This document shows positions 1 to 12,097 of a stretch of DNA of 12,097 bases, piece after piece. The stretch comes from a virus, in UHGV virus genome UHGV-0124803; one strand, 5' to 3'. Position 1 is the stretch's first letter. Every line of letters starts with the position of its first letter. A program made the translations under genes and the position numbers. A model generated the notes under the pieces. That model worked only from the letters and a program-made list of their open reading frames with translations, had not been told where the DNA came from and did no database searches.

Positions 1-49
1 ATGTTTGCAGTTTCAAGGCATTTTCTTAAATCTGCTGGTGATGCCCTGT

Positions 50-700
50 TCATGCAGCACGCTCCCGCCCCTGGATGTCTGTTGGTGACAGCGGAGCATT
101 GCTGAATGCATTTGTTAATCCGCCAATATCCAACGCGTATCCAGGGTGTAGTTGCACTGCCGGGTCTTCGCACTGATTACCCCAAACATCAAAGCCATGA
201 GACGTCTGGCGGGCGAACAGTTCAATGCGAGAAACATCGCCTAATAATTGCACAAGTTTTTCACGAACGATATCTGGCTTTCTTGAATGCTCAAGCCGCG
301 GTGCGGTAAATGACTGAACGATCCCTGCATTAATGCGCGTAGGTAGTTTTCCCTTTACCGCAAACAGGCAATCTTCACTATTGGCGCGAGTCATGTGTCC
401 CATACCCATAACCAGTTTATCTGGTTGTCGACTACCACATTTTATCCACGTGAAGCCCTTCATCGTCATCAGACGGAATCCCCAGGCTTCAACAACTTTT
501 AGTGCTTCGAGTGGTTGTGTTGGCACCCACCACATGGCCAACAGACAGTTTTCATCGGCCAAATCCCATACAGGAAGGCGGCAGATATCCAGCACACTCA
601 TAACCGGATATTTAAAACCGGCACCGCGATTACCATCTGCGGCTTTGTCCCGGTATACCCAGGGTGGATCTGCATAGATTAGTGTGTATTTCTTAGTCAT
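50..700 (-). CDS. MT-A70 family N6-adenine DNA methyltransferase (phage orphan methylase)
   Basis: ORF 50..712; DPPW catalytic motif (YADPPWVY) close to the N-terminus. ATG at 700 (MTKKYT) preferred over the GTG at 712; the upstream ORF stop (693-695) overlaps it. Confidence 0.75.
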   Translation of the reverse strand: MTKKYTLIYADPPWVYRDKAADGNRGAGFKYPVMSVLDICRLPVWDLADENCLLAMWWVPTQPLEALKVVEAWGFRLMTMKGFTWIKCGSRQPDKLVMGMGHMTRANSEDCLFAVKGKLPTRINAGIVQSFTAPRLEHSRKPDIVREKLVQLLGDVSRIELFARQTSHGFDVWGNQCEDPAVQLHPGYALDIGGLTNAFSNAPLSPTDIQGRERAA

Positions 701-941
701 AAACCACCCCACAACATCCTATGCCGCTATAGTCGCCACGGCGAAGGCCGTTACCTTTTGTGATACATTGGTCCCTGCGAACCGCGATCCTTGCACGTTC
801 AACATCACCAGAAGCAACATCCATACACTGAAGCCAAAGGTGAGCGGCAATGCGGAATTGCCCTTTTTTCTCTCTTTCAATCGCGCGTTTTTCGATCTCT
901 ATCGCCGCAGGAGTAACGGCGACAATCTTTGACGGACTGCG
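693..941 (-). CDS. Hypothetical small protein (83-99 aa; start ambiguous: ATG 941, ATG 959 or GTG 992)
   Basis: ORF 693..992 in the same orientation between the AlpA-like gene and the methylase; stop overlaps the methylase start; AAGG 6 nt upstream of ATG 941. No recognisable motif. Confidence 0.4.
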   Translation of the reverse strand, partial: RSPSKIVAVTPAAIEIEKRAIEREKKGQFRIAAHLWLQCMDVASGDVERARIAVRRDQCITKGNGLRRGDYSGIGCCGVVYD

Positions 942-1101
942 CATTGAAACCTTATTCATGTGATATTTTTCAAGTCGGCTTAACTTTCTCACTTAATCCA
1001 ACCCTCTCTGAAAATTAATGCCAGCAGATAAAGCCATGCTGAAACAGAGGCCAGGAATAAGTACCATCCTGACCATTTGCTCCAGTGCCTTAGCAGCGCA
1101 C

Positions 1102-1350
1102 TCATGCAGCGTTGCTCACGGGACGATATACACGTTGCTGAACAGGAGGCTTTTTACCCTGGAACTCTGCCGGGCTTGCTGCCTGACGTTCATCAAGCCA
1201 ACGCTCAACTTCATCACGGTTCCATGCGCAGCGTTTATCGGTGATATACCAGCGTTTAGGAAATTCCCCTGCGCGCTCCATACGGTCGATAGTGCTCCAT
1301 GACAGTGGCACCACCGCCAGGAGTTCCTTCTTACCTAATGCACCTTTCAT
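1102..1350 (-). CDS. AlpA-family helix-turn-helix regulator / excisionase-like protein
   Basis: 82-aa ORF with the AlpA pattern: HTH (LLAVVPLSWSTIDRMERAGEFPK) followed by a W...E..ERWL segment; RBS AGAGAGG upstream of the ATG. Confidence 0.6.
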   Translation of the reverse strand: MKGALGKKELLAVVPLSWSTIDRMERAGEFPKRWYITDKRCAWNRDEVERWLDERQAASPAEFQGKKPPVQQRVYRPVSNAA

Positions 1351-1372
1351 AAATACCTCTCTTGGTTGCAGT

Positions 1373-1391
1373 GCGGCGCGCGTGGCGCCGC
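1373..1391 (-). other. GC-rich hairpin between recT and the AlpA-like gene (7-bp stem GCGGCGC/GCGCCGC, 5-nt loop), no U-tract
   Basis: Perfect inverted repeat read directly from the sequence, 9 nt downstream of the recT stop on the minus strand; lacks the T-run of an intrinsic terminator. Confidence 0.3.
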
Positions 1392-1399
1392 GGTGGTGG

Positions 1400-2422
1400 T
1401 TACTCGAATTCTGGACGCATATCGTTAAGCGTCATCATGAATTTTTGGTGATATTCATCACCGAGCTTTTCAGCCATGGTGTTAATTTCATTTTCAGCGC
1501 GCTTGAACATCGTTTTTGCATCTTCAGCAGATGGATCTAGGCTATTAAGTATCGCGATGATATATTCTCGAGCTTCTTCTCGTTCTGAATCTGAAATTGG
1601 CGACAGGTGTTGACGCTCATCGTCAACTACGGAATATTCACCAGTGATAACAGCTGCGTTATCTTGGCTAAGTCCAGCTTCAGCGCGCTCATCCATAACA
1701 ACAGCCTTCTGCATTTCAATAGAAACAGGAAGATATTTGAACAGTCGGCGAATTACTGTTTTTTTAGCCATCTCATCGAAGTGATCAACCCATGGGCCAC
1801 TGCTACCGGCTTTGCTCAGTGCACGAACTTTCTCAACGTCTGCCCGGCTCATAACTTCAAATTGCACTCCGCCATCTTTCAGTCGTGCAACGGCGTAAAC
1901 GTGCGTTAATTCTCCGCGGTCACCTGTTTCGCAAGGTAAATGCTCGAGCGTTTCTTCCAGGCCGTATGAGTAGCTGAATTTGTCGTTTGTATGTACGGTA
2001 CGAGCCGAGATACTCAGGATCTGCCCAGAGCGGCGGGCAAGGTCAATCATTCCGCGATAGCCGATAATCAGCTGTGCTTCTGTAGATACGGTTTCCCATC
2101 TTCCATTTACTTTCTGGCGTTTGTCGAACGGTATCAGGTAAGCGTGTCCAAGAGCTCCGCCTGGTTCAAGACCCAATTGGGCACATTGCATAATTGCCCC
2201 CAGGAAGCTGGCTTGGTCGCATGATGCAAGTTTTGGAACCTTTCGGATCTCTGTGGTTGCTATGCGCGCCAGACGGTCTGCTGTCATGTGCTTTGGAAGT
2301 GCCAAAGCCATCTGAGCTTTAATTTTTGGGTCTGCCAGAAGTCCGGCCAGAGTTGTTGGTTTCTCATTATGATGTGCAACTTGGTTACCGGTAGCCGCTG
2401 CCTTAAGTGCATTGATAGACAT
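1400..2422 (-). CDS. recT: RecT-family single-strand annealing recombinase with an acidic C-terminal extension
   Basis: 340-aa ORF with RecT-type core motifs (GYRGMIDLARRSGQ, LIPF); strong RBS AAGGAG 7 nt upstream of the ATG; 9 nt after the exonuclease stop. Confidence 0.9.
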   Translation of the reverse strand: MSINALKAAATGNQVAHHNEKPTTLAGLLADPKIKAQMALALPKHMTADRLARIATTEIRKVPKLASCDQASFLGAIMQCAQLGLEPGGALGHAYLIPFDKRQKVNGRWETVSTEAQLIIGYRGMIDLARRSGQILSISARTVHTNDKFSYSYGLEETLEHLPCETGDRGELTHVYAVARLKDGGVQFEVMSRADVEKVRALSKAGSSGPWVDHFDEMAKKTVIRRLFKYLPVSIEMQKAVVMDERAEAGLSQDNAAVITGEYSVVDDERQHLSPISDSEREEAREYIIAILNSLDPSAEDAKTMFKRAENEINTMAEKLGDEYHQKFMMTLNDMRPEFE

Positions 2423-2431
2423 TTTTTCTCC

Positions 2432-3331
2432 TTACTTCATTCTGAAGACGCGTTGTGTCGTTGTTGTTTTGAATTTTTCGAATAACTCAGGGTGTACTGA
2501 CTGGAATAGCTTCTGGTCGAATCTGTTGCTGATCTGAGATTTCCATGTGCAGAGCGGCTTTCCGTCCAGGGTCAGGACTGAGTGCTCTTGCATGTACATC
2601 TTCAGCTTCTCTTCTGATATAGCTATTTCTTCTTCCAGTGATTTTCTGCGTGACTTCATGTCTCGTAGATCGTTGAATAGTGCGAGTGCCTTTCCGTCAG
2701 CCTCGATACTTGTCCCGGCATCTTTCTCAAACATCAGCGATACATCGCTTACGCTGGTAGCTTCCGGCGGGTTAAGATTTTTCACTCGGTCCCAGAAAGC
2801 GATTTCTTTTTCTAAGATCGCCTGGATAGTTTCTTCATCACGCTCAACCCGATAGATTCGGAAGTCGTCGCCACCGATAAGCACACCGAAAACGCATACC
2901 TGTTTGTTTGTAACCATCAACCCGTGCATGGCCTGGGCCGTGTAATGCACAGGAATTGCATCTGTCTGGATTTCTCCCCATTCTTTGGCTTTGAACGGAC
3001 TAACTGTTTTGATCTCAATGTTCTCGCCTGACGCTGCTTCTGCATCGATCTCAGCTGCAATAAAATCGTAATCACGGTGGATATAGCGGTTTCCGCGATG
3101 AACGATTTCCATCCCTGTTTCCTCAGAAAGCAGGTCTATTACGTATGGCTCCATACGCTGGCCACGCGTGAAAACTTTCTGCTTGCTTGGGTCTACTGGT
3201 TTGACACGTGGCTGGACCTTATCCAGATAAACCTCAAGCGGGGTGCGCCATGGGCTAATTCCAAGAATCCCTGCAACATCGCTTCCTCCGATGTATTTTG
3301 TTCTATCCATGATTCCAGCGTTCCGCATCAT
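2432..3331 (-). CDS. YqaJ-type (lambda-exonuclease-like) recombination exonuclease
   Basis: 299-aa ORF; N-terminal YqaJ signature KYIGGSDVAGILGISPWRTPLEVY; the ATG at 3331 overlaps the upstream stop (ATGA coupling), with an alternative internal ATG at 3310 (MDRTKY). Paired with recT downstream. Confidence 0.85.
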   Translation of the reverse strand: MMRNAGIMDRTKYIGGSDVAGILGISPWRTPLEVYLDKVQPRVKPVDPSKQKVFTRGQRMEPYVIDLLSEETGMEIVHRGNRYIHRDYDFIAAEIDAEAASGENIEIKTVSPFKAKEWGEIQTDAIPVHYTAQAMHGLMVTNKQVCVFGVLIGGDDFRIYRVERDEETIQAILEKEIAFWDRVKNLNPPEATSVSDVSLMFEKDAGTSIEADGKALALFNDLRDMKSRRKSLEEEIAISEEKLKMYMQEHSVLTLDGKPLCTWKSQISNRFDQKLFQSVHPELFEKFKTTTTQRVFRMK

Positions 3332-3627
3332 GCCGCGTCCCTCTGCCCATCAAGCTGATCCGCCAGCTCCCAGCGGGCGATAATTGCCATTGCCTCGCGC
3401 CGGTAGGCATCCATCAGTTCTTCGAACTCAGGGCTGTCTTTAGCAGCCTCCAGCACTTCCTGACGAACGCCTTTGCCTGTTACAACGTCGAAAGTTGAGG
3501 CCAGTTGATGAAGCCGGATACTCTCAATCAGTTCAACTTGTCGGTCATATAGCTGTTCTGACAGGCGGTAGTCCTTGTCGAATGCCAGCATGATTTTTTG
3601 AAGATTTTTCTGCTGATTAACGTTCAT
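3328..3627 (-). CDS. Hypothetical protein (99 aa) heading the recombination operon
   Basis: ORF 3328..3642; the ATG at 3627 (MNVNQQ) has a strong RBS GGGAGGG; stop overlaps the exonuclease start. No motif recognised. Confidence 0.55.
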   Translation of the reverse strand: MNVNQQKNLQKIMLAFDKDYRLSEQLYDRQVELIESIRLHQLASTFDVVTGKGVRQEVLEAAKDSPEFEELMDAYRREAMAIIARWELADQLDGQRDAA

Positions 3628-3629
3628 TA

Positions 3630-3782
3630 TCAGCCCTCCCATATCTCGTTATCGTTGGCCACATCGCGAGCTTCTTTGCTGACGAAAGCCCACTTAATGC
3701 CTTCCTGTAAGGTGCGGAACTTCCAGCTCATGAATCCGCATGCAGTAACGCAGTACCAACCGTTGATGATTTTCCACTGCAT
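3630..3782 (-). CDS. Hypothetical small protein (50 aa, Trp/Cys-containing), first ORF after the PL-like promoter
   Basis: Not in the ORF track (under 60 aa). Read by hand: MQWKIINGWYCVTACGFMSWKFRTLQEGIKWAFVSKEARDVANDNEIWEG; RBS GAGGT about 7 nt upstream of the ATG at 3782; stop 2 nt before the next gene start. Confidence 0.3.
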   Translation of the reverse strand: MQWKIINGWYCVTACGFMSWKFRTLQEGIKWAFVSKEARDVANDNEIWEG

Positions 3783-3788
3783 AACTTG

Positions 3789-3793
3789 TTACC
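3789..3793. promoter_or_regulatory. Operator half-site (TTACC) over the RBS of the first leftward ORF
   Basis: Single pentamer matching the half-site of the palindromic operator; could equally be chance. Confidence 0.2.
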
Positions 3794-3801
3794 TCGGCCT
3801 G

Positions 3802-3816
3802 TTACCGCTGAGGTAA
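3802..3816. promoter_or_regulatory. Operator site OL-a (TTACCgctgaGGTAA)
   Basis: Perfect 15-bp palindrome TTACC-N5-GGTAA just downstream of the putative -10 of the leftward promoter. Confidence 0.6.
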
Positions 3817-3844
3817 TGATTATGCGTATTTGGTTTGGTGTCAA
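3817..3844 (-). promoter_or_regulatory. PL-like leftward early promoter (-35 TTGACA at 3844..3839; -10 uncertain, CATAAT or TAATCA at about 3824..3817)
   Basis: Consensus -35 hexamer on the minus strand flanked by two operator palindromes, upstream of the recombination operon; the -10 and its spacing are not clear-cut. Confidence 0.4.
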
Positions 3845-3863
3845 TAGATATGAGTTAAAAAAA

Positions 3864-3878
3864 TTACCCGTAAGGTAA
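3864..3878. promoter_or_regulatory. Operator site OL-b (TTACCcgtaaGGTAA)
   Basis: Perfect 15-bp palindrome, centre 62 bp from OL-a, upstream of the -35. Confidence 0.6.
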
Positions 3879-3888
3879 TCTATCTGGC

Positions 3889-3914
3889 AATAAAAAAGCC
3901 GCCATGAGGCGGCT
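3889..3914 (-). terminator. Rho-independent terminator after the repressor gene
   Basis: 7-bp GC-rich stem AGCCGCC/GGCGGCT with a 4-nt loop, followed on the minus strand by TTTTTTATT; about 20 nt downstream of the repressor stop. Confidence 0.6.
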
Positions 3915-3935
3915 TACTTACTGAAAACTATAGTT

Positions 3936-4520
3936 TTATTGTTTGCTTTTTTCGTTCTGGTTGATGACAAATTCAATGTAACTTTCGATCTTTGCTTTCT
4001 CGGTTTCGGGTAACAATGCGTAGCGTGAGCGGTCATAGTTGATAGTCGCAGGGTCGTGCGGGTGAATCAGTAGTTCATATCCGTGACGCCCGAATGCGGA
4101 TGCAACATTCTCCAGGGTGGAAATGGAAACGCTGACCTCATTGTTTAACAGGCGGCTGATTGTCACCTGGGCGACGCCGGATGCGCGGTGAAGTTTTCCC
4201 TGCGTTGAAAGGTCGCGGCTTTCGCTCATCCAGCGTTCCAGGTTGTGAGCCGCCAGCTGACCAATGTCGCTTGGGCCGACAGGCTGAAAACCTTCCTGAG
4301 AAAGCGAGCGATCGATATCAAGCCAGTTACGTGGTTTATTGGCGGCAGCTTCAATTTTTCGCGCAACCTGGTCGCCGATAACCTTCTTGCCAAGAGCCCA
4401 GCGGTTTACCAGATTTGCCTGAGTTCCAAGTTTTTCTGCCATCCGCGTCTGAACACCATTGAATTCACGGTCGATCAAGTCGTTGAGATTTTGCCTGCGG
4501 ACGTCCTGGATACTTTTCAT
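3936..4520 (-). CDS. Immunity repressor (CI-like function), tandem HTH, no S24 peptidase domain
   Basis: 194-aa ORF divergent from the cro-like gene; two HTH-like segments (around residues 22-45 and 115-145, the second XRE-like: GVAQVTISRLLNNE...SISTLENVASAFG); no Ala-Gly/Ser-Lys autocleavage module visible; flanked by operator palindromes on both sides. Confidence 0.7.
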   Translation of the reverse strand: MKSIQDVRRQNLNDLIDREFNGVQTRMAEKLGTQANLVNRWALGKKVIGDQVARKIEAAANKPRNWLDIDRSLSQEGFQPVGPSDIGQLAAHNLERWMSESRDLSTQGKLHRASGVAQVTISRLLNNEVSVSISTLENVASAFGRHGYELLIHPHDPATINYDRSRYALLPETEKAKIESYIEFVINQNEKSKQ

Positions 4521-4575
4521 TTTCTGGAAAATCGCCTCATATATGAATCAGTAGATGATTCAATTTAAAGCAATA

Positions 4576-4590
4576 TTACCCAACAGGTAA
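4576..4590. promoter_or_regulatory. Operator site OR-a (TTACCcaacaGGTAA)
   Basis: Perfect 15-bp palindrome in the divergent repressor/cro intergenic region. Confidence 0.6.
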
Positions 4591-4620
4591 ATGCACCCCA
4601 TAGGTAACTATCCTTGATTT

Positions 4621-4649
4621 TTGTTACCTTATGGGTGAATATTTATTAT
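4621..4649 (+). promoter_or_regulatory. PR-like rightward early promoter (-35 TTGTTA 4621-4626, 17-nt spacer, -10 TATTAT 4644-4649)
   Basis: Sigma70-like hexamers at 17-bp spacing, about 25 nt upstream of the cro-like ATG; operator OR-b lies in the spacer. Confidence 0.45.
4625..4639. promoter_or_regulatory. Operator site OR-b (TTACCttatgGGTgA, one mismatch)
   Basis: Near-perfect palindrome overlapping the PR-like -35 and spacer; centre 49 bp from OR-a; an extra GGTAA half-site at 4603-4607. Confidence 0.5.
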
Positions 4650-4674
4650 CTGAAATAAATATCAGGCAATAGCT

Positions 4675-4905
4675 ATGAGCGATAACGGACATTTCGATTT
4701 CAAAAAGCACTGGCTTGCACTTACTCCGGATGAGCGTGAAGCCTTCGCACAGGAAGCCGGAACGACGAGTCACTATATCCAGACTCACTTAACAGGTAAG
4801 CGCAAAATGCCAGGTAAGGTATTGATGAATGGGCTTTTTAAAGCCTGTAAAACAAGACAATGGCTGCGCTCAAAAGCAGAACTGGCATACTTCTTCTACT
4901 CATGA
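4675..4905 (+). CDS. Cro-like small DNA-binding regulator
   Basis: 76-aa ORF divergent from the repressor, first gene after the PR-like promoter; HTH-like segment (EREAFAQEAGTTSHYIQTHL). Confidence 0.6.
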   Translation: MSDNGHFDFKKHWLALTPDEREAFAQEAGTTSHYIQTHLTGKRKMPGKVLMNGLFKACKTRQWLRSKAELAYFFYS

Positions 4906-4927
4906 TATCCAGCCACAACCCTCTGTA

Positions 4928-4949
4928 GACCGCCATCCGGCGGTCTTTT
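4928..4949 (+). terminator. tR1-like intrinsic terminator after the cro-like gene
   Basis: 7-bp stem GACCGCC/GGCGGTC, loop ATCC, followed by TTTT; about 23 nt downstream of the cro-like stop. Confidence 0.5.
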
Positions 4950-4960
4950 CATATCTATTC

Positions 4961-4975
4961 GTACCTCAAAGGTAA
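4961..4975. promoter_or_regulatory. Degenerate operator-like site (gTACCtcaaaGGTAA)
   Basis: 14 of 15 positions match the palindrome; lies between the tR1-like terminator and the next gene. Confidence 0.3.
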
Positions 4976-5053
4976 TAAAAAACCAAATCTGGTTGATCAA
5001 ATTTTCCAATTGTGCAAAATAGCCAATATCAATAACAAAAAGGGGCGGAAAAA

Positions 5054-5266
5054 TTGAAGATAGTAACCAGAATGGAGGCCGCAAAAGCCGGGTTAAATCG
5101 CTATTTCACAGGAAAGCGGTGCCGTCACGGCCATCTCTCTGAAAGGTATGTTCTGAACGGAACATGTGTTGAATGTGCAATGAATAGCGCCAACCGCCAT
5201 CGTAATGAATTTGCTTGTGCACTAAAGAGTGCAAGAGGGGAAACCTATGGCAAGCAGCTGGATTAA
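5054..5266 (+). CDS. Small Cys/His-containing protein at the cII position (possible zinc-binding regulator); start TTG 5054 or ATG 5072
   Basis: ORF between the cro-like and O-like genes; pattern C-x-H-x-H ... C-x2-C (CRHGH ... CVEC); GGGG 8 nt upstream of the TTG; no resemblance to lambda CII recognised. Confidence 0.4.
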   Translation: MKIVTRMEAAKAGLNRYFTGKRCRHGHLSERYVLNGTCVECAMNSANRHRNEFACALKSARGETYGKQLD

Positions 5267-6077
5267 GGTTGAAGTTATCACTCCTGATAAACCTGAAATT
5301 TTTCAGATAGCAGAAATTCTGGGTATTGATCCAGATGCTGTTCTTGGAAAGCTGGTTCGTATATGGGCATGGGCTGACCAGCAAACAATAGACGGTAACG
5401 CTGGCAGCGTTACAAAAGGAGTACTTGATAGACTCGCTTTTATTACAGGATTTGCTGACGCCCTCATTAGCGTCGGATGGCTTGCTTATCATGACGGCAA
5501 ACTAATTCTTCCAAACTTTGAGCGACACAATGGAGAATCATCGAAAAAACGTGCACTTACGAATAGAAGAGTGGCAGAGCATCGAAAACGAGTAACGCAA
5601 AAAGTAACGCCAACAGCGTTACAAAAGGAGTTACCAGAGGAAGAGGAAGAGGAAGATATATATAAAACCCCACACATAGCACACGCGCGCGAGAGTGATC
5701 CGACCAGTGAAGCGAACGGTACGCCGTTGCAGGTGGCAGAACCTGCATTTCTGGATGGCCTGAGTGAACCTATTGGGAAATTTCCGATGATCGATGGCTG
5801 GCATCCATCGCCGGATTTTCGACGGCGTGCTGCGCTGTGGGGAACGGCCCTGCCGGAACCGGAATTTACACCTGCTGAACTTGCTGCATTCCGGGATTAC
5901 TGGATGGCTGAGGGCAAAGTGTTCACGCAGGTTCAGTGGGAACAAAAATTCGCCAGGCACGTAAATCATATCAGGGGAAAATCAAAAAACGTCGGGAAAA
6001 GCGATGAGCTTGACTGGAATAACACTGACTGGATAGAAGGGGTGTGGGATGAAATCAACTCCAGAACTTCTCAATGA
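5247..6077 (+). CDS. Replication initiator / replisome organiser (O-like function) with DnaT-like C-terminal domain
   Basis: ORF 5229..6077; ATG at 5247 has RBS AGAGGGGA; acidic linker (EEEEEED); the C-terminal W/F-rich segment resembles the DnaT-type domain; sits immediately upstream of and overlapping the P-like gene; contains the candidate origin repeats. Confidence 0.65.
   Translation: MASSWIKVEVITPDKPEIFQIAEILGIDPDAVLGKLVRIWAWADQQTIDGNAGSVTKGVLDRLAFITGFADALISVGWLAYHDGKLILPNFERHNGESSKKRALTNRRVAEHRKRVTQKVTPTALQKELPEEEEEEDIYKTPHIAHARESDPTSEANGTPLQVAEPAFLDGLSEPIGKFPMIDGWHPSPDFRRRAALWGTALPEPEFTPAELAAFRDYWMAEGKVFTQVQWEQKFARHVNHIRGKSKNVGKSDELDWNNTDWIEGVWDEINSRTSQ
5590..5668. repeat. Candidate replication origin: GTAACGC iterons plus GA-rich and AT-rich tract inside the O-like gene
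   Basis: GTAACGC at 5591-5597 and 5602-5608 (11-bp phasing), inverted GCGTTAC at 5615-5621; the 18-mer CAGCGTTACAAAAGGAGT recurs at about 5405 and about 5614 in different reading frames; followed by GAGGAAGAGGAAGAGGAAG and ATATATATAAAA. Confidence 0.4.
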
Positions 6078-6825
6078 GTACGATCGCTTACGTGAGCATG
6101 GTGTTGCTGTGCATGAAGAGCGGCGTGACAGCAATGGCAAAAAGGAGCAGGTCGCTAGAATTTTCAATGAACTATTTGTCCAGTTACAGGCTGCATTTCC
6201 TGCAAGCGTTTCGACCATAAGGGAGCAGAACAAACTTAATGAATTCCGTAAGCAATGGATGCTTGCGTTTCTGGAGAATGGGATCACTACAATGGAACAG
6301 GTTAACGCTGGTATGCGCCACGCCCGCGCCAGTGAATCTCCGTTCTGGCCGTCGCCAGGGCAATTTATCAAGTGGTGTAAAGACAGCAAGATGGTTCTTG
6401 GCGTCACCATTGACGATGTGATGGCGGAGTTTCACCGGTACAGCAAGGAAAAAAGTTTATATCCTGGTGGTCCCGAAAGATTCCCGTGGCGGCATCCGGT
6501 TATGTACTGGGTCGTATGTGATACCCGCCGTGCAATGTATCAGCGCCAGCTTAGCGAGATTGAGGTTGAGAAACATGCGCGCAGGCTGCTTGATGATTGG
6601 GCGAAAAAGGTGGCTTCCGGACAGCAGATACCCGATCCGGTGATCAGCATACAGGCAAAGCCAGAACCCATGAGTACGCCTCCGGACACAGGGAGAGACG
6701 TTTACCATCCACCAGGGCGAAGTTTCGGGTGTATGCCTAACGCCGCTACCCTGGGGGGAATAACACCGGCGCAGTGGCTGATGGAGGAATACAGGCGGGG
6801 AAAGGCGGCAGGATTTATCAAGTAA
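6049..6825 (+). CDS. Lambda P-family replication protein (helicase loader)
   Basis: 258-aa ORF; the segment FPASVSTIREQNKLNEFRKQWMLAFLENGITTMEQVNAGMRHAR...PFWPSPGQFIKWC closely matches lambda P as I recall it; overlaps the O-like gene by 29 nt. Confidence 0.85.
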   Translation: MKSTPELLNEYDRLREHGVAVHEERRDSNGKKEQVARIFNELFVQLQAAFPASVSTIREQNKLNEFRKQWMLAFLENGITTMEQVNAGMRHARASESPFWPSPGQFIKWCKDSKMVLGVTIDDVMAEFHRYSKEKSLYPGGPERFPWRHPVMYWVVCDTRRAMYQRQLSEIEVEKHARRLLDDWAKKVASGQQIPDPVISIQAKPEPMSTPPDTGRDVYHPPGRSFGCMPNAATLGGITPAQWLMEEYRRGKAAGFIK

Positions 6826-6830
6826 TACCA

Positions 6831-6850
6831 GCGCGATAGCGCATTTTTTT
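6831..6850 (+). terminator. Weak terminator-like element after the P-like gene (GCGC-gata-GCGC then ATTTTTTT)
   Basis: Only a 4-bp stem but a 7-T run immediately downstream of the P stop; low confidence. Confidence 0.3.
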
Positions 6851-6855
6851 ACGTC

Positions 6856-6883
6856 TTGACAATTACCTGTTAGGTAATAAAAT
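6856..6883 (+). promoter_or_regulatory. Third repressor-gated promoter (-35 TTGACA 6856-6861, 16-nt spacer, -10 TAAAAT 6878-6883)
   Basis: Consensus -35 and 5/6 -10 at good spacing; an operator palindrome fills the spacer and a second lies 62 bp downstream at the RBS of the first accessory gene. Confidence 0.5.
6863..6877. promoter_or_regulatory. Operator site O3-a (TTACCtgttaGGTAA)
   Basis: Perfect 15-bp palindrome exactly between the -35 and -10 of the third promoter. Confidence 0.6.
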
Positions 6884-6924
6884 ATTCTAAACTCTATTGA
6901 TTTCGTGTCTTATGTGGTTTTTAA

Positions 6925-6939
6925 TTACCTCTGGGGTAA
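6925..6939. promoter_or_regulatory. Operator site O3-b (TTACCtctggGGTAA)
   Basis: Perfect palindrome 62 bp (centre to centre) from O3-a, the same spacing as the OL pair; 4 nt upstream of the ATG at 6943. Confidence 0.6.
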
Positions 6940-6942
6940 ATC

Positions 6943-7287
6943 ATGAGAAAACAGATACAGGCTCTTGGTCGACTCAAAACAGGCCAGATGAACAAAACAG
7001 AATCTGCGTATTGCCAGCACCTTGAGCAGCGTAAACGTGCAGGGGAAATCGCCTGGTATCGATTCGAGGGTATCAAGCTGCGGTTAGCTGACAACACGTT
7101 CTATACGCCCGATTTTGCTGTGATGCTCGCCACCGGCGAGATGGAACTGCACGAAGTGAAAGGTTTCTGGACCGACGATGCCAGGGTGAAAACCAAAGTC
7201 GCCGCAGATCAGTATCCGTTCCGAATCATCGGGGTAACGGTTAAGCCAAAGAAAGCAGGTGGTGGCTGGAACATCGAAGAGTTCTGA
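6943..7287 (+). CDS. DUF1064-like putative PD-(D/E)xK nuclease
   Basis: 114-aa ORF; pattern KTESAYCQHLEQRKRAGEI...YTPDFAV...ELHEVKGFWT matches my recollection of the DUF1064 / restriction-endonuclease-like fold (D ... E-x-K). Confidence 0.5.
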   Translation: MRKQIQALGRLKTGQMNKTESAYCQHLEQRKRAGEIAWYRFEGIKLRLADNTFYTPDFAVMLATGEMELHEVKGFWTDDARVKTKVAADQYPFRIIGVTVKPKKAGGGWNIEEF

Positions 7288-7348
7288 ATCGACGATCTTT
7301 TTAGTTATCAATGTAATCAATAAGTTATGTGGATAAGCGAGGGTAAAG

Positions 7349-7831
7349 ATGGAAAGTAATATCAAAGGGTTAGTTGCCGCCGGGCATGAGATGGCTTCGG
7401 AACTGAAAGCAGAATGTGGTGCCGTTGATATGCGCAGTGTGGCAAAGCTGATCAGCGATTTGGCAACGCAACTGGAAGTTCAGTTGGTGCGTGCTAATGC
7501 GCTGGCGGCGGAGAATGCGGCGTTTAAGGACATAAACGCATGGTGCAAAACAGATGCGTTCAGCAACATGTATCGTGAGTTCAAAACAGCAGAAGCAGTT
7601 GGATGTTGCAACATTGACTGTATGCATGACGCAATGGTGGTCGCAATTATGCACGCACCAGAAGCGCCAGCCACCGATGTTTTTCTGGCTGAAATTGAAC
7701 GCAAAGCAATCCGCAAATTCATTAACAGCATTGAACACATCCTGCGTGACAAGCTGTATCCGTATGACACCGAAGAGATGCTTGAGGCTATGCGTATTTT
7801 TCTGGAAGAACAGGGAGGCGAGCAAAAATGA
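7349..7831 (+). CDS. Hypothetical protein (160 aa)
   Basis: ORF with RBS GAGGG 5 nt upstream of the ATG; stop overlaps the next start (ATGA); antisense ORFs here are Cys/His-rich and lack RBSs. Confidence 0.55.
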   Translation: MESNIKGLVAAGHEMASELKAECGAVDMRSVAKLISDLATQLEVQLVRANALAAENAAFKDINAWCKTDAFSNMYREFKTAEAVGCCNIDCMHDAMVVAIMHAPEAPATDVFLAEIERKAIRKFINSIEHILRDKLYPYDTEEMLEAMRIFLEEQGGEQK

Positions 7832-8145
7832 CGATCACAAAACAACGTGTAGAAGAAATCATATCCCGCATTGAAATGTATGGGCATGGTGCAGGGTATA
7901 CCGCTGACGAGGTTTATGACCTGGCTGTACTGGCGCTGAATTTATCAAATATCGCAAACCTGAAGCGATACGAGCTTGATATGGATGGTTGTGACTCGTT
8001 CGGTCAGGATTGTGGAGCTGACATGACTGAAGATTCTGATGGCGATTATGTCCTGTTTGATGACGTGGTTAAGTTGTTTGAGTTTGATACAACCACTCAG
8101 AAGCCAGAAAGCCCAGCAAAGGAGGCAACCAGTGAGCGAAATTAA
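7828..8145 (+). CDS. Hypothetical acidic protein (105 aa); N-terminal module shared with the 9111 protein
   Basis: RBS AGGGAGG upstream; N-terminus MTITKQRVEEIISRIEMYG resembles MTTITKERLLTIKQWRETYG of the 9111..9941 product. Confidence 0.5.
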   Translation: MTITKQRVEEIISRIEMYGHGAGYTADEVYDLAVLALNLSNIANLKRYELDMDGCDSFGQDCGADMTEDSDGDYVLFDDVVKLFEFDTTTQKPESPAKEATSERN

Positions 8146-8818
8146 TTACCAGGCACTGCGTGAGGCGGCGGAACGTGCAATTCCGGCAATGGAACGCCTG
8201 TTAATGTTGCCAGTTGATGATGATTTGTTAAGTGAACAGGAACTTAAAGATTACGGTGTGGATATTGATGCGCTCAACGCCTTCAAATTTCTGACCGGAC
8301 CAGAAACCGTGCTGGCACTACTGGATGAACGGGAAAGGAACCAGCAATACATCAAACGCCGCGACCAGGAGAACGAGGATATTGCGCTTACGGTTGGGAG
8401 GCTGCGCGTTGAGCTGGAAGGCAAAGACAGCAAAATAGCCAATCTTACCGCCGAACGCGATGCTCTTCGTGAAGGTGAGATGGGCGACGCTAGGCATAGC
8501 AACACACGGGCCGCAGCTGATATCTACTTCCAACTGGTCGAGGAGTGCGAAATTCCTGCTGGCGGATCTCTGGTCGAGTACGTTGACGATATGCGCGAGA
8601 AGCTGGAAGCCGCAGAGAAGCGCATTGCAGAGTTAGAAAGTGGTTCTGAGGCACAAAAGTTAGTTGAAGCAATCATTGTTGCGATAGAAAACGAACAGGA
8701 AAGGCTTTTTGATGAAGATTACCTAATGGATTCGAAAGAATGCATTGACGTAATTCGTGAAGAAGTAAAGCGATGGAATGATTCCCGTGCCGCTGGCATT
8801 CGCATCAAAGGAGAGTGA
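8132..8818 (+). CDS. Ea22-like family protein (coiled-coil)
   Basis: GTG start at 8132 with RBS AAAGGAGG 6 nt upstream (the track ORF starts further upstream at 8039); segment LLDERERNQQYIKRRDQENEDIALTVGRLRVELE matches my recollection of prophage Ea22-like proteins. Longer than lambda Ea22, so a homologue rather than the lambda gene. Confidence 0.55.
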   Translation: MSEINYQALREAAERAIPAMERLLMLPVDDDLLSEQELKDYGVDIDALNAFKFLTGPETVLALLDERERNQQYIKRRDQENEDIALTVGRLRVELEGKDSKIANLTAERDALREGEMGDARHSNTRAAADIYFQLVEECEIPAGGSLVEYVDDMREKLEAAEKRIAELESGSEAQKLVEAIIVAIENEQERLFDEDYLMDSKECIDVIREEVKRWNDSRAAGIRIKGE

Positions 8819-8819
8819 T

Positions 8820-9107
8820 ATGGCAACTTTGCAGGAATTAATCGACCTGACGCCAGAACAGGAAAAAGCGTGGAATCGCCTTGTGAAGGCTGTAAAGGAT
8901 TTCAGGGCAGCCGGAGGAAAGTTTTATAGCGTCCTGGACACGCTGAGCGCATACAACGGCGAGCACGTTGCCAGCATTGATAACGATAAGGGCTACCACA
9001 CTGCAAGCGTCTATATGCCTAGCATTGATGCGCCAGGGCTAACCAGTTGGGCTGATGATTGGCACGGCATCACGCTGAAAGATGGCGTTGAAGTGGATGA
9101 GGACTAA
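8820..9107 (+). CDS. Hypothetical protein (95 aa)
   Basis: ATG at 8820 with RBS AAGGAGAG 5 nt upstream, immediately after the Ea22-like stop; no recognisable motif. Confidence 0.5.
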   Translation: MATLQELIDLTPEQEKAWNRLVKAVKDFRAAGGKFYSVLDTLSAYNGEHVASIDNDKGYHTASVYMPSIDAPGLTSWADDWHGITLKDGVEVDED

Positions 9108-9110
9108 CAC

Positions 9111-9941
9111 ATGACCACTATTACCAAAGAGCGACTACTGACAATCAAGCAGTGGCGCGAAACATACGGACCTGGTAGCAACGTTGTACTGCCAGCAGAA
9201 GAAGCGGAAGAGCTGGCACGGATTGCGCTGGCATCGCTGGAAGCAGAGCCTGTTCTGTATCAGTCCTGCACTCGCCCCACCTGGAATAGCGGTGTTCCGT
9301 GGACGGAATGGAAAGAACGTAGTCGTGAGGGCTACGAAGACGATTTGCGCTTTACAGACACGCCTGACCATGCCGGTTGGATAAACAAATGCCGAAAACT
9401 ATATACCACTCCGCCAGCGCCGGTAATACAGGCTGATGTCGCGCAAGCAATTGAAAATCTCAAGCAGAAGTTAGTGGAATGCAATCGCTATAACTACTGC
9501 GCAGATGCAGTTAAAGGCGTAGAGGATGCCTGCCGTGCTGTTAGCTATAGCCAAGCCGACAATCAACCAGCATCTGGCAACCAGGCTGCCGAATCCAATC
9601 GCAGTAATGAGTGGACCGGCAATCCTGATATTGATAACGCCATCATCATGCTCGACCGCATAGATACGCTGGAAAATTGCGATGATGACCGTATTGAGGC
9701 GGTTAAGGCTGTTTTGCGTAGACTGGCTGGCAACTATCCGGTAACTCCGGATGGTTGGATAAGCTGTAGTGAGCGAATGCCGGATAAGTTAATTCCGGTA
9801 ATGGTCATGTATGAAGACGGTGAGATGTGGTCTGCAATGTGGAATGGCAATCGCTGGGATGATGGCACCGAATATCCGGATCCGCACTCAGTTACGCACT
9901 GGCGTGAAATGCCAGCAGCACCGCAGCAGGAGGTGAAGTGA
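9111..9941 (+). CDS. DUF551 domain protein
   Basis: 276-aa ORF; C-terminal GWISCSERMPDKLIPVMV ... VTHWREMPAAP matches the DUF551 pattern as I recall it; RBS GAGGA upstream. Confidence 0.55.
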   Translation: MTTITKERLLTIKQWRETYGPGSNVVLPAEEAEELARIALASLEAEPVLYQSCTRPTWNSGVPWTEWKERSREGYEDDLRFTDTPDHAGWINKCRKLYTTPPAPVIQADVAQAIENLKQKLVECNRYNYCADAVKGVEDACRAVSYSQADNQPASGNQAAESNRSNEWTGNPDIDNAIIMLDRIDTLENCDDDRIEAVKAVLRRLAGNYPVTPDGWISCSERMPDKLIPVMVMYEDGEMWSAMWNGNRWDDGTEYPDPHSVTHWREMPAAPQQEVK

Positions 9942-10162
9942 TGGACTCCTTCGCGAAATATACGATTATTGACTGGATAGCCTTCCTTCAGGTTTTGCTC
10001 ATCTGGTTTTATATGGCTTACAGGAGTGGACAGTGGATTGTCAGTGTAGCCTGTAGCAAGGGATGGCGTTGGTGGAACCGAAAGAATAAAAAGCGCTGGC
10101 CTTGGATTCGTTTTACGAAGCATTCAATCTTAACAGTCTTCAGCCTGGTTCTGTCGTTGTAG
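9941..10162 (+). CDS. Small hydrophobic (probable membrane) protein, 73 aa
   Basis: ATG overlaps the upstream stop (TGATG); hydrophobic N-terminal helix (IIDWIAFLQVLLIWFYMAY), basic W/R/K-rich middle, hydrophobic C-terminus. Confidence 0.35.
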   Translation: MDSFAKYTIIDWIAFLQVLLIWFYMAYRSGQWIVSVACSKGWRWWNRKNKKRWPWIRFTKHSILTVFSLVLSL

Positions 10163-10216
10163 TCACCACTCAAAGCGGCATGACGATACAAATTCACAAG
10201 CCAAAGGAGGAAGGTC

Positions 10217-10501
10217 GTGGCTAACCTGCAACTTGCCGTTAAAGGTGAATACTTCGATGCCATGATTCGCGGAGAGAAAACGGAAGAGTATCGCCTGTGT
10301 AATGACTACTGGAATAAGCGAATTATGTTCCGCGAGTATGACCGCCTGATTATCACAAAGGGATATCCGAAGCGCGACGATTCCAGCCGCAGAATTGACG
10401 TCCCGTATGACGGATATGAAATCAAGACAATCACACATCCCCACTTCGGTGATAAACCGGTAAAGGTGTTCGCGATAAAGGTGAATATCGGCAATGAATA
10501 A
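10217..10501 (+). CDS. ASCH/PUA-like domain protein (DUF3850-like), 94 aa
   Basis: GTG start with strong RBS AAAGGAGG 6 nt upstream; pattern LQLAVKGEYFDAMIRGEKTEEYRLCND resembles ASCH/DUF3850 proteins as I recall them. Confidence 0.5.
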   Translation: MANLQLAVKGEYFDAMIRGEKTEEYRLCNDYWNKRIMFREYDRLIITKGYPKRDDSSRRIDVPYDGYEIKTITHPHFGDKPVKVFAIKVNIGNE

Positions 10502-10573
10502 CAATCCTCGCACTCGCGGGGATTTCTTTTATCTGAACTCGCTACGGCGAGTTTTGTTTTATGGAGATGATAA

Positions 10574-10741
10574 ATGCACTTCCGAGTCACAGGTGAATGG
10601 AATGGAGAACCATTCAACAGAGTTATCGAAGCAGAGAACATCAATGACTGCTATGACCACTGGATGCTGTGGGCGCAGATAGCACATGCAGACGTAACCA
10701 ATATTCGAATTGAAGAACTGAAAGAACACCAAGCCGCCTGA
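10574..10741 (+). CDS. 55-codon small ORF upstream of xis (resembles my recollection of a lambda orf-55)
   Basis: Hand-read ORF MHFRVTGEWNGEPFNRVIEAENINDCYDHWMLWAQIAHADVTNIRIEELKEHQAA with RBS GGAG 7 nt upstream; the stop is embedded in a terminator hairpin; not in the ORF track. Confidence 0.4.
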   Translation: MHFRVTGEWNGEPFNRVIEAENINDCYDHWMLWAQIAHADVTNIRIEELKEHQAA

Positions 10742-10753
10742 TGGCGGTTTTTT
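10733..10753 (+). terminator. Intrinsic terminator hairpin immediately upstream of xis
   Basis: Stem GCCGCC/GGCGG(T), loop TGAT, followed by TTTTTT. Confidence 0.5.
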
Positions 10754-10754
10754 C

Positions 10755-10768
10755 TTGCGTGTAATTGC
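10755..10768 (+). promoter_or_regulatory. pI-type CII-activated promoter box (TTGC-N6-TTGC: TTGCgtgtaaTTGC)
   Basis: Tetrad repeat with 6-bp spacing placed so that transcription would start inside xis; this is the lambda pI arrangement as I know it. Confidence 0.5.
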
Positions 10769-10780
10769 GGAGACTTTGCG

Positions 10781-10999
10781 ATGTACTTGACACTTCAGGA
10801 GTGGAACGCACGCCAGCGACGCCCAAGAAGCCTTGAAACAGTTCGTCGATGGGTACGCGAGTGCAGGATATTCCCTCCTCCGGTTAAGGATGGAAGAGAG
10901 TATCTGTTCCACGAATCAGCGGTAAAGGTTGACTTAAATCGACCAGTAACAGGTAGCCTTTTGAAGAGGATCAGAAATGGGAAGAAGGCGAAGTCATGA
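10781..10999 (+). CDS. xis: Excisionase Xis (lambda-type)
   Basis: 72-aa product MYLTLQEWNARQRRPRSLETVRRWVRECRIFPPPVKDGREYLFHESAVKVDLNRPVTGSLLKRIRNGKKAKS, which I recognise as lambda Xis; 23-nt overlap with int as in lambda. Confidence 0.95.
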   Translation: MYLTLQEWNARQRRPRSLETVRRWVRECRIFPPPVKDGREYLFHESAVKVDLNRPVTGSLLKRIRNGKKAKS

Positions 11000-12047: not shown

Positions 12048-12097
12048 TGATTTTATTTTGACTGATAGTGACCTGTTCGTTGCAACAAATTGATAAG
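12044..12097. other. attP P' arm: Int arm-type sites (P'3, P'2, P'1) and IHF H' site; window ends before the core
   Basis: Window sequence is the reverse complement of the lambda P' arm as I recall it: arm-type sites at 12044-12053, 12055-12064, 12065-12074 (rc AGGTCACTAT and relatives) and an IHF-like TATCAATTTGTTG on the minus strand at about 12084-12096. Confidence 0.8.

Follow-up and report, generated by a model that had tools for sequence, protein, structure and literature searches.

A probable Ant-controlled, non-cleavable immunity repressor of the SPC32H/ε15 Rep family in a phiV10-type early region

The Rep/Ant mechanism of Salmonella phage SPC32H was reportedly described by Kim & Ryu in 2013 and by Kim et al. 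in 2016. The repressor of this ε15-like podovirus, Rep, is made up of a DNA-binding domain, a middle dimerization domain (MDD), and a further domain (CAD) that is bound by the antirepressor Ant (PMC9986798). Rep is inactivated by Ant and not by cleavage (PMC9638917; PMC7380047; PMC9986798; and the PDB title). When bound to DNA, Rep is a tetramer, which tetrameric Ant splits into dimers (PMC9638917), and the production of Ant follows the self-cleavage of LexA (PMC7380047). For phage vB_EcoP_ZX5 (ZX5), overexpression of the repressor (ORF21) abolished free phage and lowered the mRNAs for holin and endolysin by about 99.97-99.99%, and mitomycin C induces ZX5 lysogens (PMC9782041). The "anti-repressor" tested in the same study is a Bro-N fusion protein, not the small Ant (PMC9782041).

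We analyzed a 12,097-nucleotide stretch of the viral genome UHGV-0124803 (the window). Its rep gene spans exactly positions 3936-4520 on the minus strand, including the stop codon, and encodes an immunity repressor of 194 amino acids, an ortholog of phiV10p40 and ZX5 ORF21 and a homolog of SPC32H Rep. The phiV10 and ZX5 proteins are 99.5% identical to the window's Rep, and the function of ZX5 ORF21 has been shown by overexpression. SPC32H Rep shares 43% identity with it from end to end (BLASTP, E = 1e-53). Similarity to the known repressor is far above chance: the PDB chain 5d50_A ("Rep-Ant complex from Salmonella-temperate phage") matches residues 1-190 (phmmer, E = 3.5e-42), and 5d4z, which covers Rep 92-198, aligns to the second half (E = 3.6e-20). 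A Foldseek search against the PDB ranked 5D50 and 5D4Z at the top, followed by classic XRE domains (SinR, the N-terminal domain of P22 C2, and DdrO). We place the ORF, whose homology to SPC32H Rep is full length, in the SPC32H/ε15 Rep family. This family is already known, its crystal structure has been solved, and its antirepression mechanism is published, so the window's Rep is not new. Overall, it is very likely that the ORF is the ordinary lysogeny-maintenance repressor of an ε15/phiV10-type (Uetakevirus) early region, with induction controlled by Ant. Repressor activity, tetramerization, the Ant mechanism, and LexA control are ascribed to it by analogy with its relatives in the literature, and the window's copy probably works as they do.

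The exact Rep sequence is present in 11,962 indexed blocks of a public assembly collection. It is a very common E. coli prophage gene that is usually annotated just as "helix-turn-helix domain-containing protein," and one GenBank phage record names a Rep homolog "plasmid maintenance system antidote protein VapI."

The original prediction described two HTH-like segments in the 194-residue product, and Pfam, an AlphaFold2 model, and the alignment to the solved repressor all bear this out. Across the whole protein, Pfam's HTH_3 matches over two stretches (E = 1.2e-9), and HTH_26 matches as well. When scanned alone, the C-terminal half exceeds the curated cutoffs for both families (25.7 bits versus 23 for HTH_3 and 24.8 versus 22 for HTH_26), while the N-terminal half is sub-threshold (E = 4e-4 for YdaS and 0.013 for HTH_3). 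Despite these scores, we regard the N-terminal half as an HTH domain, because its counterpart in the alignment with the solved repressor is the DNA-binding domain and it contains the textbook motif Q-x-R-x-A-E-x-x-G-x-x-x-N-L-V-N-R-W. The model (mean pLDDT 78.5) has two all-helical domains, with HTH helices at residues 24-31/35-43 and 107-114/118-125, and a C-terminal helix at residues 172-193. Residues 157-162 are modeled with low confidence, as one would expect if this strand took shape only on oligomerization.

The alignment to SPC32H Rep takes in all three parts of that protein. Residues 1-72 (4305..4520, minus strand) form the N-terminal HTH domain, which is assigned its role in DNA binding by homology to SPC32H Rep (PMC9986798); in its recognition helix, NLVNRW, N36, R40, and W41 are invariant. 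Residues 89-152 (4065..4256, minus strand) make up the second domain, which has an HTH_3 fold and aligns to the MDD. Residues 153-194 (3939..4064, minus strand) form a C-terminal strand and long helix, which align to the p53-like tetramerization and Ant-binding domain (CAD), and Y162, L170, and F184 are invariant in this module. By analogy, only the N-terminal HTH would be the DNA-binding domain; the second HTH would dimerize the protein, and the last ~40 residues would tetramerize it and bind Ant. The idea of tandem HTH domains thus stands for both segments, but the SPC32H layout refines it: the second HTH is probably a dimerization domain, and a distinct C-terminal module follows it.

Palindromes of 17 bp with the pattern ATTACC-N5-GGTAAT lie on both sides of rep. 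Counting the 15-mer core TTACC-N5-GGTAA, the window contains 7 sites versus 0.17 expected, and none of 200 shuffles reached 7. The motif is also enriched in SPC32H (18 sites versus 0.65 expected), Tyrion (15 versus 0.59), BUCT711 (13 versus 0.37), and bases 1-28,400 of phiV10 (7 versus 0.46). Position and enrichment suggest that the palindromes are Rep binding sites. A generic inverted-repeat finder with default settings reported the rep terminator only and missed these 6-5-6 operator palindromes.

In the window, the operator-like sites overlap three promoter-like sequences. To the left of rep, the candidate for the leftward early promoter (TTGACA-17-AATCAT, 3816..3844, minus strand; 10 of 12 consensus matches) would drive a 50-residue ORF, a 104-residue ORF, exo, recT, and downstream genes. 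The distal left site, ATTACCCGTAAGGTAAT (3863..3879), lies upstream of the -35 element and is 62 bp from the proximal site, GTTACCGCTGAGGTAAT (3801..3817), which abuts the -10 element and the predicted start. Just 3' of rep is an intrinsic terminator (3896..3915, minus strand), and the phiV10 annotation has this terminator too. To the right of rep, the closest site is ATTACCCAACAGGTAAA (4575..4591), and 17 bp from it is a degenerate middle site, TGCACCCCATAGGTAAC (4592..4608), with two mismatches to the 15-mer; SPC32H also has a pair of sites with 17-bp spacing. The third right-hand site, GTTACCTTATGGGTGAA (4623..4639), lies within the spacer of the candidate for the rightward early promoter (TTGTTA-17-TATTAT, 4621..4649, plus strand). 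This promoter would serve a cro-like gene (4675..4905, plus strand) that is divergent from rep and encodes a 76-residue regulator (phrog_35, transcriptional repressor, E = 5.6e-13) with 76% identity to SPC32H_042. Another site, CGTACCTCAAAGGTAAT (4960..4976), is just past the terminator of the cro-like gene (4927-4946), and SPC32H has an equivalent site after its own cro-like gene. The third promoter candidate (TTGACA-16-TAAAAT, 6856..6883, plus strand; 11 of 12 consensus matches) fronts the block of genes from DUF1064 to ASCH. One operator-like site (6862-6878) fills its spacer, and a second, ATTACCTCTGGGGTAAA (6924..6940), is 62 bp downstream and adjoins the DUF1064 start codon. Across the window and its relatives, 9 of 10 operator pairs keep the 62-bp spacing, and the operator-like sites of phiV10 and ZX5 occur in the same order as in the window with nearly identical spacings.

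As for rep itself, inspection of 4521-4575 by eye for a sigma-70 promoter turned up weak candidates only. Weak candidates are compatible with an activated promoter, similar to lambda PRM, although we make no such claim.

In the mechanism that we propose, the N-terminal HTH domain would recognize the palindromes, which overlap the divergent early promoter candidates that flank rep and the third candidate before the DUF1064-to-ASCH block. The second HTH-fold domain would dimerize Rep and the C-terminal strand-helix module would build tetramers, so one tetramer would present two DNA-binding pairs, and these would fit operator-like pairs that are exactly 62 bp apart. Rep would have no autoprotease. 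Induction would proceed via Ant, an antirepressor of ~85 residues whose gene, in the late region beside the tailspike gene, would be repressed by the host's LexA. DNA damage would lead to cleavage of LexA and then to synthesis of Ant, which would bind the C-terminal region of Rep; the tetramer would break into dimers and the DNA would be released. That Rep is a tetramer on DNA is carried over from SPC32H, and the conserved 62-bp spacing is indirect support for it. More broadly, Rep may regulate genes across the genome, with single tetramers bridging the 62-bp-spaced pairs and with sites that also bracket ant. If the sites around ant are functional, then ant would be under dual control by LexA and Rep. 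We did not find a description of this dual control or of tetramer bridging in the accessible literature, which excluded the primary SPC32H papers.

The original prediction saw no antirepressor candidate in the window and held that control of induction may lie elsewhere in the genome or be unconventional. Our searches likewise found no candidate: a tblastn search of the 12-kb window for a homolog of SPC32H Ant gave a best E value of 1.5, Pfam and PHROG scans of the window's 10 uncharacterized ORFs found no antirepressor family, and the window contains no exact LexA box (CTGT-N8-ACAG). Sites with one mismatch to the LexA box number 9 (3.7 expected), all within ORFs or the att arm, and we rejected them as promoters for ant. 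We also rejected the 50- and 104-residue ORFs as inducers. They are conserved in SPC32H as the first genes of the leftward operon, and genes in that position would be expressed only after derepression, so they should not be inducers.

Placing the control elsewhere agrees with where the relatives keep ant. In SPC32H, phiV10, ZX5, and Tyrion, ant adjoins a tailspike or tail-fiber gene in the late region, with a perfect CTGT-N8-ACAG immediately upstream. Among 36 phage records with a full-length Rep, 35 have ant. In particular, phiV10, ZX5, and HEMP4, whose Reps are 99.5-100% identical to the window's, each have a cognate ant. Unconventional control is not needed, since the mechanism is already published. 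Identity between the phiV10 Ant (phiV10p24) and SPC32H Ant is 88%, whereas the part of Rep that is expected to bind Ant shares only 38.5% identity with SPC32H Rep. We assume, by analogy, that phiV10-type Rep binds Ant, as has been shown for the SPC32H protein only.

The other end of the window complicates this picture. phiV10 and ZX5 use a P4-type integrase for integration at guaA and carry ant in the late region, whereas positions 10781-12097 of the window comprise a lambda-type xis, int, and attP arm. The window's copy of rep leads to this module where phiV10 and ZX5 have the terminase end of the early-right operon. We did not see linkage of Rep to a lambda-type int in the phage collection or in 5,426 complete E. 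coli genomes, and a 20-mer from the window's int was absent from 90 Rep-carrying loci (10 assemblies with the exact protein and 80 loci from IMG/VR). The hybrid context may separate the window's Rep from the late region that would normally bear ant. We suggest, tentatively and as a rather unlikely scenario, that a phiV10-type immunity module recombined onto the lambda-type module and, if it became uncoupled from its own ant, that induction and excision would require Ant in trans from a co-resident Uetakevirus prophage.

In a related alternative, which we consider unlikely, Rep would be an orphan. Its phiV10-type immunity and early region would sit on the lambda-type xis-int-attP module as a recombinant or remnant that has lost the ant-bearing late region. 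In that case, the prophage either could not be induced or would depend on Ant that another Uetakevirus prophage provides in trans. Antirepressors that act in trans are on record for Gifsy prophages, the window has neither ant nor a LexA box, and the rarity of the junction is also in favor: not one of the 5,426 genomes links the lambda-type module to phiV10-type replication genes at a single locus, and none of the 90 Rep-carrying loci contains the int 20-mer. However, the left end of the window runs on into phiV10-like sequence (with matches from base 1), and the phiV10 map puts ant about 8-9 kb past that end. Thus, the absence of ant from these 12 kb is uninformative about the element as a whole. 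Also, a nested or Campbell-type recombinant would keep ant, and the junction could be an assembly chimera across a shared 2.8-kb ea22/DUF551/ASCH region. The hybrid with the lambda-type int is either a small curiosity of phage mosaicism or a warning about the assembly.

It is quite unlikely, though it would leave Rep under the control of an antirepressor, that the main inducer in the phiV10/ZX5 clade is a larger Bro-N/Ant-like protein, or another cargo antirepressor such as an AntA-domain protein, instead of the small Ant. ZX5 ORF4 (231 residues) combines a Bro-N domain with a C-terminal segment that is 42% identical to Ant over 74 residues (E = 1e-19), and its overexpression led to a roughly 1000-fold drop in prophage titer and a 75% drop in rep mRNA (PMC9782041). 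One prophage with an identical Rep also has a gene with an AntA domain beside the methylase. But the Bro-N/Ant-like gene of phiV10 carries a frameshift (p23 and p22) and sits downstream of the terminator annotated after ant, while the small ant and its LexA box are intact. Moreover, the Ant of 35 of the 36 Rep-carrying phage records is of the small type.

The original prediction saw no LexA/CI-type peptidase in Rep and held that such repressors are not cleaved via RecA and are usually inactivated by a separate antirepressor. It is extremely improbable that Rep instead resembles lambda CI or LexA and undergoes RecA-dependent cleavage by means of a protease module that is cryptic or divergent. 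The sole point in favor of cleavage is that phiV10-type lysogens are SOS inducible, which the Ant route explains equally well. Rep has no Pfam match to an S24 or LexA-type peptidase at E values up to 10, and S24 is absent from the precomputed Pfam domains of 86 Rep homologs, nearly all of which are ~194 residues long. Aligned to the solved structure, the entire C-terminal half falls on the MDD and CAD, neither of which is catalytic, and the model is all helical except for one short strand region, unlike the beta-rich S24 fold. Judging from these alignments, the distinct module at residues ~153-194 is not a peptidase and corresponds to the tetramerization and Ant-binding domain of SPC32H Rep. 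Together with the full-length homology to the antirepressor-controlled SPC32H Rep, the missing S24 domain supports both parts of the prediction, that is, that Rep is a non-cleavable repressor and that a separate antirepressor inactivates it.

Finally, it is hardly credible that Rep is an XRE-type antitoxin or accessory regulator: this reading can draw on the VapI label and on a sub-threshold Pfam match to YdaS_toxin (residues 21-61, 20.9 bits versus a curated cutoff of 30), but rep is bordered by divergent early promoters that carry operator-like arrays, no toxin-like gene adjoins it, its product has two HTH domains and an oligomerization module where a HigA/YdaS-like antitoxin would have a single HTH, the 99.5% identical protein blocks the transcription of lytic genes when overexpressed, and the homology to a characterized repressor is full length.

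The analysis has little discovery value for the repressor itself, because the structure and the antirepression mechanism are published and a 99.5% identical protein has already been tested as a repressor. Its use is that a prophage gene can be confidently annotated as an Ant-controlled, non-cleavable immunity repressor. Similarly, the "hypothetical protein" of ~85 residues beside the tail-fiber gene in phiV10-like phages is likely to be the LexA-controlled inducer. The map of operator-like sites, with its 17-bp palindromes, 62-bp pairs, and three promoter candidates, is a testable regulon.

Among known systems, SPC32H shares several features with the window. Its Rep belongs to the same length class (198 residues versus 194) and has the same three-part layout of DNA-binding, HTH-fold dimerization, and C-terminal tetramerization/Ant-binding domains. 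The position and neighbors of rep are also as in the window, with a downstream terminator, a divergent cro-like gene, ORFs of 50 and ~100 residues, exo, and recT, and its operators share the TTACC/GGTAA half-sites and the 62-bp pair spacing. The differences are that the low identity noted above (38.5%) extends over the C-terminal half, that the linkers are unrelated, that operator-like sites in the window are richer in G+C at their central 5 bp, and that SPC32H has three left sites where the window has two.

The original prediction likened the system to phage 186 Tum and to Gifsy. As a functional analogy this holds, but the true family is that of SPC32H/ε15 Rep. The repressors of Gifsy-1, -2, and -3 (GfoR, GftR, and GfhR) are non-cleavable and have LexA-controlled antirepressors (GfoA, GftA, and GfhA), with the same logic as Rep/Ant. 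To our knowledge, these antirepressors are unrelated in sequence to Ant. The Gifsy repressors are set apart by size and architecture, as they are 136-residue proteins of the DicA/RacR type and the window's Rep is a three-part protein of 194 residues. The Gifsy antirepressors are small, encoded outside the immunity region, and directly controlled by LexA, and their binding frees the repressor from DNA (Lemire et al. 2011). The Gifsy proteins are reported to interact most likely as dimers, not as tetramers (Lemire et al. 2011). Coliphage 186 follows the same logic as Rep/Ant, in that a LexA-controlled antirepressor, Tum, inactivates an uncleaved repressor, CI; Tum has 146 residues and a DinI-like half. 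The 186 CI protein comes from another fold family and assembles into higher-order wheels, and homology between it and the window's Rep would not be expected.

Rco/Rap of the Bacillus plasmid pLS20 has been compared with SPC32H-type Rep, with homology reported for the DNA-binding domains only (PMC9986798). Rco lacks the middle dimerization domain and controls plasmid conjugation, not phage immunity. Lambda CI, P22 C2, and LexA share with the window's Rep a DNA-binding domain of the XRE-type HTH class at the N terminus. The layout of the locus also resembles the lambda CI type, with divergent early promoters and three right-hand operator-like sites, and we infer that Rep binds multiple operators cooperatively, as repressors of that type do. 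Unlike these proteins, Rep has no S24 domain and no cleavage apparatus of Ala-Gly plus Ser/Lys, and in place of an S24 domain it would oligomerize, as SPC32H Rep does, via an HTH-fold domain and a p53-like tetramerization motif.

Rep, the 194-residue product of the window's repressor gene (3936-4520, minus strand, stop codon included), matched chain A of PDB entry 5D50 over its whole length (E = 3.5e-42) and also matched 5D4Z (E = 3.6e-20). These entries are titled [quoted passage not shown] and [quoted passage not shown] respectively, as listed by Foldseek, and the protein in both is Rep of phage SPC32H. The window's Rep shares 43% identity with SPC32H Rep (BLASTP) and 99.5% with both phiV10p40 and ORF21 of phage vB_EcoP_ZX5 (ZX5); phage HEMP4 has an identical (100%) copy. 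The phiV10 record annotates p40 with [quoted passage not shown] In an assembly collection, 11,962 indexed blocks contain the exact sequence of the window's Rep, and all 10 of the places shown are guaA-integrated prophages of the ε15/phiV10 type. In this protein, we found every feature of SPC32H/ε15-type Rep that lends itself to an in silico check, and did not find the feature that defines S24 repressors. Thus, the repressor finding is correct but already known: the mechanism of Rep and its small antirepressor, Ant, was reportedly published in 2013 and 2016. The function of the 99.5% identical ZX5 ortholog was tested in 2022: its overexpression abolished free phage and reduced the transcripts for endolysin (by 99.99%) and holin (by 99.97%), and mitomycin C induces ZX5 lysogens (PMC9782041).

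The original prediction described two HTH-like segments and no S24 peptidase domain, and both descriptions hold. Against Pfam, Rep matched HTH families exclusively: HTH_3 (E = 1.2e-9, in two stretches), HTH_26, and a LacI-type HTH, with a sub-threshold YdaS-like HTH match at residues 21-61. The C-terminal half alone clears the curated cut-offs (25.7 bits vs. 23 for HTH_3 and 24.8 vs. 22 for HTH_26), and the N-terminal half alone is sub-threshold (YdaS, 4e-4; HTH_3, 0.013). In an alignment of 30 family members, the XRE signature is present in both segments (QTRMAEKLGTQANLVNRW and QGKLHRASGVAQVTISRLL). An AlphaFold2 model (29 input sequences; mean pLDDT of 78.5) has two domains, both all-helical, with a disordered linker between them (74-83), and a long C-terminal helix (172-193); when we compared Rep to the PDB with Foldseek, 5D50 and 5D4Z were on top, followed by classic XRE domains. 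Peptidase_S24 was absent from Rep at E values of up to 10, and S24 was absent from the precomputed domains of 86 homologs, nearly all of about 194 amino acids.

The "tandem HTH" description is accurate for the fold but not if it means two DNA readers. By alignment, the second HTH (residues ~89-152) corresponds to the middle dimerization domain (MDD) of SPC32H Rep, and functionally the first HTH would be the sole DNA reader. N36, R40, and W41 of the recognition helix (NLVNRW) are invariant across the family. Residues ~153-194 are a real C-terminal module, which would serve oligomerization and Ant docking rather than proteolysis. PMC9638917 describes the tetramer as the DNA-binding form of SPC32H Rep, with the dimer binding only weakly; proposes that the two DNA-binding domains on one palindrome come from different dimers; and reports that Ant, itself a tetramer, disrupts the Rep tetramer by binding two Rep dimers. 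PMC9986798 assigns tetramerization and Ant binding to the C-terminal domain (CAD), which has a p53-like strand-helix fold. According to a review (PMC7380047, citing Kim & Ryu 2013 among other studies), Ant is synthesized after LexA self-cleavage and inhibits the repressor via protein-protein contact.

The window itself does not seem to encode an antirepressor, as originally predicted: tblastn with SPC32H Ant as the query found no homolog in it (best E = 1.5), and none of ten uncharacterized ORFs examined in it belong to antirepressor-type Pfam or PHROG families. Nor does it contain an exact LexA box (CTGT-N8-ACAG); its nine one-mismatch sites are all within coding sequence or the att arm. The suggestion that induction is controlled from elsewhere in the genome is borne out by the relatives, in which ant lies beyond the rep region. 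In SPC32H, ant (19676-19936; 86 amino acids) lies about 14 kb away from rep and diverges from the tailspike gene, with the LexA box CTGTATGTTTATACAG just upstream. phiV10p24, which is annotated as hypothetical, is 88% identical to SPC32H Ant and is preceded by the LexA box CTGTGTATTTATACAG. A perfect LexA box (CTGTATAAATATACAG, as read on the ant strand) also accompanies this gene in ZX5, and the only exact LexA box in phage Tyrion is in front of ant. Ant was found in 35 of 36 phage records that encode full-length Rep, and in the other record, the match runs up to the sequence end.

Other observations concern antirepressors. The only exact LexA box in Klebsiella phage BUCT711 (384-399) is far from ant (17054-17314), which may have a degenerate box or a different form of control. 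Ant is 88% identical between SPC32H and phiV10-type phages while Rep is 43% identical overall, with 38.5% identity in the Ant-binding C-terminal half and 12.5% in the linker; Ant is much better conserved than its putative docking surface on Rep. Finally, a prophage in E. coli CP088729.1 with an identical Rep has an AntA-domain gene (14493-15149) beside the methylase gene, in place of a DUF1382 gene, perhaps as extra cargo of the antirepressor type.

The "anti-repressor" of ZX5 that was tested experimentally is a Bro-N protein, ORF4 (PMC9782041). ORF4 (1078-1773) combines a Bro-N domain with a C-terminal Ant-like domain, which is 42% identical over 74 amino acids to the small Ant (gene region 2089-2346). 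In its phiV10 counterpart (19551-20230), a frameshift separates p23 from p22. The ZX5 paper mentions neither SPC32H nor LexA (PMC9782041), and the annotation of the small LexA-controlled Ant in these E. coli phages goes no further than "hypothetical." For the E. coli clade, then, the literature that we examined has a small gap.

Taken together, the genes of the window make it the early region of a podovirus of the ε15/phiV10 type (genus Uetakevirus). One strand encodes a methylase, PerC, AlpA, RecT, a YqaJ exonuclease, two small ORFs, and then rep; the other encodes a cro-like protein (76% identical to its SPC32H counterpart), DnaT-like and P-like replication proteins, DUF1064, Ea22, DUF551, and ASCH. 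We found 7 operator-like sites (15-mers matching TTACC-N5-GGTAA with at most one mismatch, located by their starts), as compared to 0.17 expected, and 0 of 200 shuffles reached 7. All 7 are at intergenic regulatory positions. The sites at 3802 and 3864, just past the rep terminator, flank a leftward promoter candidate (TTGACA-17-AATCAT). To the right are 4576 and 4624, with a degenerate site between them (4593); the cro-like gene has a rightward promoter candidate whose spacer is filled by 4624. Another site (4961) is directly 3' of the terminator after that gene, and the last two (6863 and 6925) are in front of the DUF1064 gene, where 6863 fills the spacer of a third promoter candidate (6856-6883; TTGACA-16-TAAAAT; 11/12 consensus). 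This candidate is downstream of the replication P gene and ahead of the DUF1064/Ea22/DUF551/ASCH block; it would be a third Rep-controlled transcription unit.

Site order and spacing are nearly the same in phiV10, ZX5, and the window. Relative to shuffles, the sites are also enriched in SPC32H (18 vs. 0.65 expected), phiV10 (7 vs. 0.46, in bases 1-28,400), Tyrion (15 vs. 0.59), and BUCT711 (13 vs. 0.37). Their position, enrichment, and conservation lead us to infer that Rep binds these palindromes, and both the invariant N36, R40, and W41 and the 76% identity of the cro-like protein agree with conserved half-sites. The left pair and the third-promoter pair are each spaced by exactly 62 bp in the window, phiV10, ZX5, SPC32H (33604/33666 and 35972/36034), and Tyrion (34195/34257 and 37265/37327). 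This spacing is exact in 9 of 10 pairs across five phages, and the tenth is in BUCT711 (63 bp at 7124/7187; its other pair, 4210/4272, has 62 bp). Sixty-two base pairs is about six helical turns, which suggests that each pair is bridged by one Rep tetramer, whose two DNA-binding pairs would contact two sites that share one face of the helix.

Operator-like sites also bracket ant, 380-412 bp apart, in four phages: phiV10 (20497 and 20877), ZX5 (2043 and 2423), Tyrion (21393 and 21776), and BUCT711 (16965 and 17377). SPC32H has a single site upstream of ant (20013). Given these sites, ant or the divergent tailspike promoter may be under the control of Rep as well as LexA. Sites of this kind are also found ahead of the terminase, int, and lysis units. 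For rep itself, we saw neither a good sigma-70 promoter nor a good Shine-Dalgarno sequence in 4521-4575 (minus strand), and the weak -35 candidates are directly adjacent to the closest operator-like site; this arrangement is reminiscent of an activated, lambda PRM-like promoter.

The right end of the window, from 10781 to 12097, is occupied by a lambda-type xis (10781-10999), int (10977-12047), and attP arm (to 12097), where the early-right operon of the relatives has its terminase end. Matches to phiV10-type phages cover 1-10488 and matches to lambdoid prophages cover ~7668-12097; the overlap (~7668-10488) is an Ea22/DUF551/DUF4752/ASCH block that is common to phiV10-type phages and lambdoid prophages at attB-lambda. 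Recombination within this block would yield the observed hybrid. The phiV10-type and lambda-type parts were not linked in any complete E. coli genome that we searched, and the window's int sequence was in 0 of 90 Rep-carrying loci examined. Either rare recombination or chimeric assembly produced the hybrid. It is improbable that the window's Rep has been uncoupled from an ant of its own. Three terminator-like hairpins (10503-10524, 10535-10554, and 10731-10750) lie between ASCH and xis, and no N-type antiterminator was seen in the window, so the candidate promoter at 6856-6883 may not drive xis and int.

The original prediction compared this repressor to the phage 186 Tum and Gifsy-type systems. 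The parallel is sound for the logic of induction, which Gifsy and 186 share with Rep and Ant, but the proteins are probably unrelated; the Gifsy repressors are 136-amino-acid proteins of the DicA/RacR type.
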